Assembly: GCF_003334335.1 (NCBI RefSeq)
Contig: NZ_QOWQ01000126.1
DNA length: 1,058 nt
Source: Escherichia coli
GTDB lineage: Bacteria > Pseudomonadota > Gammaproteobacteria > Enterobacterales > Enterobacteriaceae
Strand: one strand, 5' to 3'
Position 1 is the first letter of the stretch. Each line of letters starts with the position of its first letter. The notes under the pieces are model-generated. The model had not been told where the DNA came from. It made no database searches and worked only from the letters and a program-made list of their open reading frames with translations. A program made the translations under genes and the position numbers. This document shows, one piece after another, positions 807 to 1,058 of the stretch.

Positions 807-883
807 TGGCGCGTTGTACTGGATTCGAACCAGTGACCGGTTGCTTAGAAGGCAATTGCTCTGTCCGGCTGAGCTAACAACGC
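807..883 (-). tRNA. argO: tRNA-Arg with anticodon UCU (reads AGA/AGG), 77 nt including encoded CCA.
   Basis: Reverse complement reads GCGUUGU-UA-GCUC-AGCCGGACA-GAGC-A-AUUGC-CUUCUAA-GCAAC-CGGUC-ACUGG-UUCGAAU-CCAGU-ACAACGC-G-CCA. Same architecture as E. coli argU, which has the identical anticodon loop CUUCUAA. One A27.C43 mismatch at the top of the anticodon stem. Symbol by analogy only. Confidence 0.8.
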
Positions 884-896
884 AGGGTACAGATAA

Positions 897-973
897 TGGA
901 CCGCCATCGAGGACTCGAACCCCGCGCAGCCAGCTTCGAAGGCTGGCGCTCTATCCCGATGAGCTAATGGCGG
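897..973 (-). tRNA. argN: tRNA-Arg with anticodon UCG, 77 nt including encoded CCA.
   Basis: Reverse complement reads CCGCCAU-UA-GCUC-AUCGGGAUA-GAGC-G-CCAGC-CUUCGAA-GCUGG-CUGCG-CGGGG-UUCGAGU-CCUCG-AUGGCGG-U-CCA. All stems pair (7/4/5/5 bp), anticodon loop CUUCGAA gives U34 C35 G36. A at the expected position 20 of the D loop and C35 are arginine identity elements. Unusual C1-G72 and U73. Symbol by analogy only. Confidence 0.75.
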
Positions 974-982
974 TATGTGATA

Positions 983-1058
983 TGGTGGCCCTTGCTGGAT
1001 TTGAACCAGCGACCTGGCGATTATGAGTCGCTCGCTCTCACCACTGAGCTAAAGGGCC
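983..1058 (-). tRNA. ileZ: tRNA with CAU anticodon, elongator type; most likely tRNA-Ile2 (lysidine-modified), tRNA-Met not excluded. 76 nt including encoded CCA; 5' end coincides with the window edge.
   Basis: Reverse complement reads GGCCCUU-UA-GCUC-AGUGGUGA-GAGC-G-AGCGA-CUCAUAA-UCGCC-AGGUC-GCUGG-UUCAAAU-CCAGC-AAGGGCC-A-CCA. Acceptor stem is 7 bp, D stem GCUC/GAGC, T loop UUCAAAU, anticodon loop CUCAUAA. Closely resembles the E. coli ileX tRNA-Ile2 sequence as I recall it. G1-C72 rules out an initiator tRNA. Gene symbol assigned only by analogy to the lambdoid prophage ileZ-argN-argO cluster. Confidence 0.8.

Follow-up and report, generated by a model that had tools for sequence, protein, structure and literature searches.

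The ileZ-argN-argO tRNA cluster and the start of an exchangeable cargo slot in the late region of an Escherichia coli lambdoid prophage

The 1,058-nt stretch of Escherichia coli DNA analyzed here (the window) is the ileZ-argN-argO tRNA cluster together with the start of an exchangeable cargo slot, lying in the late region of a lambdoid prophage between the antiterminator gene Q and the lysis cassette. The trio is an already known feature, which Stx phage records have listed under these gene names for years, found here in a common, stx-negative lambdoid prophage. It provides a landmark of the lambdoid-prophage late region and delimits, on the upstream side, the cargo slot where pathogenic strains carry stx2. 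We are reasonably confident that this late-region cluster is expressed both as its own unit and by Q-dependent read-through, and that its benefit to the prophage would be a supply of rare-codon tRNAs. Throughout, Stx2a_1447 (AP012536) served as the reference for 933W/Sakai-type Stx2 phages. The gene names follow the GenBank annotation of that record.

Results

Three tRNA genes and their terminator

According to ARAGORN and the Rfam tRNA model, the minus strand of the window contains a tRNA-Ile2 gene, ileZ (983..1058, anticodon CAU), and two tRNA-Arg genes, argN (897..973, anticodon UCG) and argO (807..883, anticodon UCU). The Rfam model aligns end to end with each gene and scores them at 72.5, 55.1 and 65.7 bits, respectively, where the gathering score is 29; the corresponding E-values are 1e-15, 6.6e-11 and 8.1e-14, and such matches lie far above chance level. 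The 3′ CCA is encoded in all three, and the edge of the window at 1058 coincides exactly with the 5′ end of ileZ. The spacers are short, with 9 nt between ileZ and argN (974-982) and 13 nt between argN and argO (884-896). Searching the window with Rfam at permissive E-values returned nothing credible beyond the three tRNAs, the remaining matches being noise. A plus-strand match to the 'Plastid-ycf2' family (36 bits; gathering score 65.7) is directly antisense to the CAU tRNA, which probably accounts for it as an artefact; a plus-strand ORF of 96 aa (736-1026), also antisense to the tRNAs, was treated as spurious.

The unit is closed at 769..792 on the minus strand by a predicted intrinsic (Rho-independent) terminator, located by pattern scan, folding and conservation. 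Its stem, GGCTCGC/GCGGGCC at 792-775, comprises 7 bp, six of them G-C pairs, and encloses a TTTT loop; a run of six T residues follows at 774-769. For this stretch, the predicted folding energy of -20.8 kcal/mol (z = -3.2) was matched by none of 200 shuffles. According to the pattern scan, the minus strand of the window has no other terminator-like site. Alignment shows that the hairpin and ~45 nt 3′ of it are kept in five prophages, one of which has a different tRNA set. The original prediction had described three same-strand tRNAs with 9- and 13-nt spacers and a single terminator, a description that ARAGORN, Rfam and the pattern scan found correct in every detail.

Identity of the tRNAs

The label that ARAGORN assigns to the CAU tRNA is 'Met', drawn from the anticodon alone. 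The gene is identical (100%) to ileZ of Stx2a_1447, 89.5% identical to K-12 ileX and 70.1% identical to K-12 metT. Its acceptor stem contains the pairs C4:G69 and C5:G68, as does that of ileX, whereas metT has U4:A69 and A5:U68. Pairs 4:69 and 5:68 are the major identity elements by which E. coli TilS distinguishes tRNA-Ile2 from tRNA-Met (PMC11947777). The anticodon loop and the four adjoining stem pairs are likewise the same as those of ileX, and NCBI PGAP annotates the identical sequence as tRNA-Ile. Because of the similarity to ileX, the acceptor-stem identity elements and the PGAP call, the CAU tRNA is assigned to the Ile2 type, and is predicted to read AUA after conversion of C34 to lysidine.

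The two arginine tRNAs are close to their Stx-phage counterparts and distant from chromosomal genes. The argO gene is 98.7% identical to argO of Stx2a_1447 and 71% identical to K-12 argU; it shares its anticodon loop with argU and differs from it in every stem, the anticodon stem at every pair. The argN gene is far closer to argN of Stx2a_1447 (96.1% identity) than to K-12 argV (65%), with values of 65-73% across argV and argU. The ArgRS identity elements of E. coli tRNA-Arg are A20 and C35, together with a purine at position 73. Both genes carry the D-loop GGA (A20) and C35; argO has G73 and argN an atypical U73. With this discriminator base, a G51-U63 wobble pair and, at 55.1 bits, a model score below those of ileZ and argO, argN is the least canonical member of the trio, and its charging and full function are therefore the least certain of the three. 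It is predicted to read CGA and probably CGG too, and argO is predicted to read AGA/AGG. No tRNA with the anticodon UCG is known from K-12, where CGA is read by inosine-containing ACG tRNAs such as argV.

The cluster lies between Q and the lysis genes of a prophage

Four complete E. coli chromosomes, among them that of strain JE86-ST05 (NZ_AP022815.1, 1206963-1208020), match the window at 100% identity over its full 1058 bases. We examined the 40 kb surrounding the JE86-ST05 match, a piece that we call L001 and to which the L001 coordinates given here refer. It contains a complete lambdoid prophage adjoining yccA, with the integrase gene at the prophage end by yccA. The prophage encodes the integrase, an exonuclease, dicB, regulators, replication genes, hokD, a DUF968 gene and rusA. 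These are followed by annotated Q (L001 22722-23405), a 65-aa ORF, a DNA methyltransferase gene, the three tRNAs (L001 20807-21058; ARAGORN and annotation), tciA (TerB family) and tciB (DUF3927). Beyond tciB lie a sialate-esterase-like gene (SASA-family carbohydrate esterase), DUF1378 and DUF826 genes, and the annotated genes for the holin (L001 16627-16842), lysozyme (L001 15134-15667) and an Rz-like lysis protein (L001 14179-14637), after which come the terminase, portal, capsid/head and tail genes. Everything from Q through the tail genes is on the tRNA strand.

Directly after Q, a motif search detects a pR′-like promoter, TTGCAA-17-TATATT (L001 22732-22704), and, ~55 nt past it, a tR′-like terminator consisting of a hairpin and T6 (L001 22649-22635). 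On motif grounds, these candidate sites form the pR′/tR′ arrangement expected after Q. The window had been predicted to sit in a prophage late-region cargo locus rather than in the core chromosome, with Q and pR′ expected upstream of the tRNAs and lysis genes downstream. The exact match inside the JE86-ST05 prophage, in the Q-to-lysis interval, bears out this placement. Q is found 1.66 kb upstream of the tRNAs, with the pR′-like and tR′-like sites just after it, and the holin, lysozyme and Rz-like genes are 3.2-5.8 kb downstream, succeeded by terminase, head and tail genes.

A tciAB cassette in place of stx2AB

Comparison with Stx2a_1447 by blastn delimits the tRNA block precisely. A block of 93% identity (L001 20758-22652) runs from the pR′ region through the methyltransferase gene and the tRNAs to the terminator. 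Homology then stops at window position ~757/758, is absent across 1-757, and resumes as a weaker match before the esterase gene. From these breakpoints, the window is therefore the tRNA block plus a cargo cassette in place of stx2AB, and position ~757 marks the start of the exchangeable cargo segment.

The cassette begins with a leader (637..757, minus strand), defined by the blastn breakpoint and alignment. It precedes tciA (205..636, minus strand), which encodes a 143-aa TerB-family protein according to Pfam (TerB, PF05099, E = 2.2e-12), PHROG (PHROG 632, 'tellurite resistance', E = 6.5e-69 over the full length) and PGAP. The phrase 'tellurite resistance' is an annotation label only. The second gene, tciB (44..208, minus strand), overlaps the tciA stop by 4 nt and encodes a 54-aa hydrophobic DUF3927 protein (PHROG 1470, 'TciB-like', E = 3.1e-24; PGAP, 'DUF3927 family protein'). 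The names tciA and tciB are also annotated in phage JLK-2012. In Stx2 phages, the slot occupied here by tciA is that of stx2A: Stx-converting phages are recognized by stxA and stxB just downstream of the tRNAs, and it is the TerB-family and DUF3927 genes that are found there in this prophage.

A pattern scan of the minus strand of the leader detected no promoter-like site upstream of tciA. The possibility of a structured leader at 637-775 was set aside, its fold (z = -1.9) being not usefully better than those of shuffles. We also considered whether tciA and tciB make up a known defence system, and rejected this, as PADLOC gave no significant match and NCBIfam gave partial, sub-threshold matches only.

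A putative promoter and the expression of the unit

Just beyond the window, 9 nt upstream of ileZ, L001 contains the sigma-70-like sequence TTGAAG-17-TATTAT (L001 21096-21068). A TTGnnn-17-TATTAT element occurs at this fixed distance in all seven of the ileZ loci that we fetched. The sequence farther upstream is unrelated among aligned loci: two of them have the 3′-terminal part of the methyltransferase gene there, and the other two have intergenic sequence past Q and tR′. Because this conserved promoter-like motif and the terminator flank the trio, it looks like a self-contained 'moron'-type unit with a putative promoter, nested in the late operon.

A plausible course of expression can be outlined from these elements. 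The trio would be transcribed as its own small unit from the promoter 9 nt upstream of ileZ to the terminator at 792-769, and with a promoter of its own it could be expressed in the lysogen. Host RNases would process the precursor, and host TilS would convert C34 of the ileZ product to lysidine so that AUA is read as isoleucine. ArgRS would aminoacylate the argN and argO products, enabling them to read CGA (and probably CGG) and AGA/AGG, respectively. In lytic growth, transcription from pR′ by Q-modified RNA polymerase would continue past the trio and its terminator and on into the genes for cargo and lysis.

Distribution and variation of the locus

We surveyed 5426 complete E. coli genomes, counting the trio as present when at least 80% of 770-1058 was matched and the trio with tciAB when at least 80% of the window was matched. 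The trio is present in 2290 genomes (~42%), at up to 13 places per genome and in roughly 7500 copies overall, and absent from 2366; 781 genomes contain the trio with tciAB. Matches to the window fall on chromosomes at 8360 of 8381 places. When the tRNA part was compared by BLAST with phage records, as had been proposed, 294 records matched, most of them Stx2-converting phages.

The tRNA set at this slot varies between prophages. PPompW and Evi have an Ile-Lys-Arg set in the same Q-to-lysis slot, Evi with the same tciAB cargo, and strain 50EVA has an Ile-Lys-Thr-Gly set there. JLK-2012 has an Asn-Thr-Gly set at the same slot after Q, together with the same tciAB cargo. All of these sets share the terminator and downstream joint of the window. 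The segment that JLK-2012 truly shares with the window starts at the tRNA 3′ end and terminator; a BLAST extension to window position 831 had suggested a recombination joint inside argO, which we rejected as generic tRNA T-arm similarity. The Lys(UUU) gene of the sister prophages is a homologue of argN, with the same acceptor stem, a changed anticodon and a co-changed anticodon stem. In some strains, the middle gene has a non-canonical form of 81 nt, which goes unrecognized by both ARAGORN and the Rfam tRNA model.

Discussion

Codon supply as the probable function of the trio

Between them, the anticodons of the trio match four sense codons that rank among the rarest in E. coli. To relate the trio to codon demand, we counted ATA, AGA, AGG and CGA in annotated intact genes, using 40 core genes of the murD-panD region as the host set. 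These codons occur at 23.5 per 1000 in the whole prophage versus 7.1 per 1000 in the 40 host core genes (odds ratio 3.4, p = 2e-27), with AGA and AGG each enriched 7-8-fold. Within the prophage, the frequency is 19.0 per 1000 in late genes and 30.6 per 1000 in early genes. It reaches 61 per 1000 in stx2AB, where ATA accounts for 68% of the isoleucine codons. The trio thus matches the codon demand of the whole prophage and of stx, not that of the adjoining genes in the window. With just 3 relevant codons in 197, tciA and tciB gave us reason to reject a dependence of the cargo on the tRNAs. Given this low use in the cargo and the higher use in early than in late genes, the tRNAs therefore do not track the genes with which they are co-transcribed.

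Because all three anticodons fit the rarest codons exactly, the supply of tRNAs for AUA, AGA/AGG and CGA is the best-supported function for this particular trio, and a probable one. The tRNAs would top up the scarcest tRNAs of the host for codons that prophage genes overuse, and that the toxin genes overuse most in Stx phages. Several observations weigh against this function or against a strong effect. The heaviest users of rare codons are the early genes, which lie upstream of Q. Horizontally acquired genes are generally rich in these codons, so that the enrichment is not specific to this element. The middle tRNA-Lys(UUU) of the sister prophages reads the common codon AAA and is not explained by rare-codon supply. 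Moreover, a published comparison found no difference in codon adaptation when lambdoid phages with these tRNAs were set against those lacking them (t-test p = 0.93; PMC4631060).

Other readings of the tRNA block

The mosaicism of the locus lends support to two other explanations. According to the first, prophage tRNAs mainly stand in for host tRNAs that anticodon nucleases or tRNA-targeting toxins cut upon induction or superinfection. Such agents include colicin D, which acts on tRNA-Arg, and PrrC, PARIS and OLD-type systems; tRNAs with divergent stems would be poor substrates for these nucleases. There is precedent in phage T5, whose tRNA-Lys neutralizes PARIS through changes in the anticodon stem (PMC11464382), and coliphage tRNAs have been screened against tRNA nucleases (PMC12445682). 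In keeping with this explanation, argO combines an anticodon stem unlike that of argU with an identical loop, the middle slot changes rapidly among related prophages (UCG, UUU or the 81-nt form), and the Lys(UUU) tRNAs and Asn/Thr/Gly sets found at the same slot elsewhere are not rare-codon tRNAs. However, the loop and four adjoining pairs of ileZ match those of ileX, and the loop of argO matches that of argU, so that a nuclease recognizing the loop would not be evaded. Moreover, no nuclease targeting tRNA-Ile2 or tRNA-Arg(UCU) has been linked to these phages in the literature that we searched, and codon supply accounts better for the way in which all three anticodons match the rarest codons exactly. 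We consider replacement of cleaved host tRNAs unlikely to be the main role, and are more doubtful still that the block is primarily an anti-defence module, one that provides nuclease-resistant substitutes for host tRNAs cut by colicins or abortive-infection anticodon nucleases and whose middle gene tracks the tRNA-targeting systems circulating in E. coli.

A second explanation holds that the block is kept mainly as a passive module boundary, a joint at which homologous recombination swaps cargo and tRNA sets, and that its translational benefit is small. The cargo swapped between lambdoid prophages under this reading would comprise stx, tciAB and insertion sequences. The terminator and the ~45 nt after it are common to prophages that differ in their cargo and even in their tRNA set, and homology breaks exactly at the edges of the tRNA block. 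The same tciAB cargo is paired with different tRNA sets (Ile-Arg-Arg in this prophage, Asn-Thr-Gly in JLK-2012, Ile-Lys-Arg in Evi), and the middle tRNA has decayed in some lineages. That no difference in codon adaptation was reported for lambdoid phages with and without tRNAs (PMC4631060) also fits. In contrast, ileZ and argO are intact, canonical and high-scoring in every locus examined, even where the middle gene has decayed, and the promoter-like element keeps its distance in 7 of 7 loci. Intact ileZ and argO genes and a fixed promoter-like element point to selection on expression, not on DNA homology alone, and we regard a primarily recombinational role as improbable.

The idea that the window is a housekeeping tRNA operon of the core genome is already refuted, despite its location on chromosomes at nearly all of the places where it is found: the locus lies inside a complete prophage gene set from integrase to tail, is missing from 2366 of 5426 genomes and reaches 13-14 copies in others, and its closest K-12 tRNA genes, at 65-89.5% identity, are single and unclustered. 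A match to such an operon had been named in the original prediction as an outcome that would overturn it, and what we found instead were solitary K-12 genes at ileX (89.5%), argU (71%) and argV (65%).

Comparison with known systems

The trio and its cargo can be set beside several known systems. Among chromosomal genes of K-12, ileX (Ile2, CAU) and argU (UCU) have the same anticodons and anticodon loops as ileZ and argO, and all of these genes encode CCA; the K-12 genes differ in being single genes at separate loci. The T5 tRNA-Lys resembles members of the trio as a phage tRNA with a host-type anticodon and a diverged anticodon stem (PMC11464382). This likeness is an analogy only; unlike in the T5-PARIS case, the tRNAs duplicated by the trio are not known targets of any defence system.

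For the cargo, the closest parallel is the tciA-tciB-tciC operon of phage P1, from which the names tciA and tciB come and where their function is likewise only inferred (PMC9603915). As in the window pair, tciA of P1 is TerB-like and tciB encodes a small membrane protein. The locus studied here differs in that it is without tciC and lies in a lambdoid late region, whereas P1 is a plasmid prophage.

The most extensive correspondence is with Stx2-converting phages. The order of the trio had been predicted to be that of the ileZ-argN-argO cluster of lambdoid and Stx prophages, and genes annotated with these names stand in the same order in Stx2a_1447, at the identities given above (100%, 96.1% and 98.7%). 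The two loci share the anticodons, order, strand, spacing and terminator of the tRNA genes, and in both the tRNAs lie after Q and ahead of the esterase and lysis genes. L001 and Stx2a_1447 further share the DNA methyltransferase gene and the small ORF upstream of the tRNAs, at 93% over 1.9 kb. One difference is that Q is of another type, with homology stopping at the pR′/tR′ region. In Stx2a_1447, the tRNAs come after the same methyltransferase gene and before stx2A and stx2B, a 1.9-kb ORF, the holin gene and the endolysin gene; in L001, it is tciA and tciB that follow the terminator in the place of stx2A and stx2B.

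Transcription of the tRNA block and codon use

Features resembling late-operon signals lie between the Q antiterminator gene and the tRNA genes in L001, the 40-kb locus of NZ_AP022815.1 that contains a perfect match to the window within a lambdoid prophage lacking stx. Directly after the Q stop codon is a promoter-like TTGCAA-17-TATATT, followed by a CCCGCCACTGGCGGG hairpin with a T6 tail, both within L001 22635-22732; these are candidates for pR' and tR' of the prophage late operon. A second, sigma-70-like motif, TTGAAG-17-TATTAT (L001 21068-21096, 10-38 nt past the right end of the window), lies 9 nt upstream of ileZ. 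Its distance to ileZ is constant in all seven ileZ-carrying loci, and the DNA further upstream is unrelated among them, which together suggest, at the level of sequence, that the tRNA block has a promoter of its own.

Codon use was compared between the early (L001 22308-38450) and late (L001 198-19549) regions of this prophage. The codons ATA, AGA, AGG and CGA occur at 30.6 per 1000 in early-region genes versus 19.0 per 1000 in late genes, the reverse of what is predicted by a purely late-operon model in which the tRNAs supply codons for late genes.

On the plus strand, window 985-1058, exactly antisense to the CAU tRNA, matches the Rfam family 'Plastid-ycf2 5'UTR' at 36.3 bits, under the gathering score of 65.7. 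The same match is present at the ileZ copy of a related prophage locus (L012). Rather than marking a feature, it probably arises artefactually from the tRNA sequence of the opposite strand.

Variation in the middle tRNA gene

The middle gene of the trio, argN (897-973), has the lowest tRNA model score of the three (55 bits) and has U73 as its discriminator base, U15, and a wobble pair between G51 and U63, features unusual for E. coli tRNA-Arg; the argN copy of the Stx2a phage instead has G51-C63. In three sister prophages its counterpart bears a UUU (Lys) anticodon (L008 5176-5251, L009 5843-5919 and L013 2501-2577). These genes share the acceptor stem and U73 of argN, and their anticodon stem has changed along with the anticodon, so that this looks like an anticodon switch inside a single tRNA lineage. 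Because AAA is a common codon, the Lys(UUU) gene is beyond the reach of an explanation based on rare-codon supply. A third form, found at L012 2626-2706 and L011 2591-2691, is 81 nt long, with four extra bases in the anticodon arm. It is recognized neither by ARAGORN nor by the Rfam tRNA model, is labeled 'tRNA-OTHER' or left unlabeled by PGAP, and may be either a gene that has decayed or a tRNA-like RNA of a non-canonical kind.

Cargo genes and their joint with the tRNA module

Downstream of the tRNA genes, tciA and tciB (window 44-636, minus strand) overlap by 4 nt and encode a 143-aa TerB-family protein and a 54-aa hydrophobic DUF3927 protein, respectively. Neither matched a PADLOC defense family. 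The arrangement of the trio with tciAB is found in 781 of 5426 complete E. coli genomes. A terminator-like hairpin (TCCGCAG...CTGCGGG) with a T-rich tail lies antisense within the 5' end of tciA (window 593-611, plus strand); terminator-like sites in the window are at chance level (two found versus 1.4 expected).

The tRNA terminator hairpin and ~45 nt downstream (window 757-806) are conserved across prophages that differ in cargo, including stx2, tciAB and ISEc20 (alignment A1), and also in phage JLK-2012 despite its different tRNA set. This segment acts as a fixed joint linking the tRNA module to the cargo module. In Stx2 phages, the slot occupied here by tciA and tciB holds stx2A and stx2B; by analogy with phage P1, the two genes may function in tellurite or colicin resistance or in inhibition of cell division.
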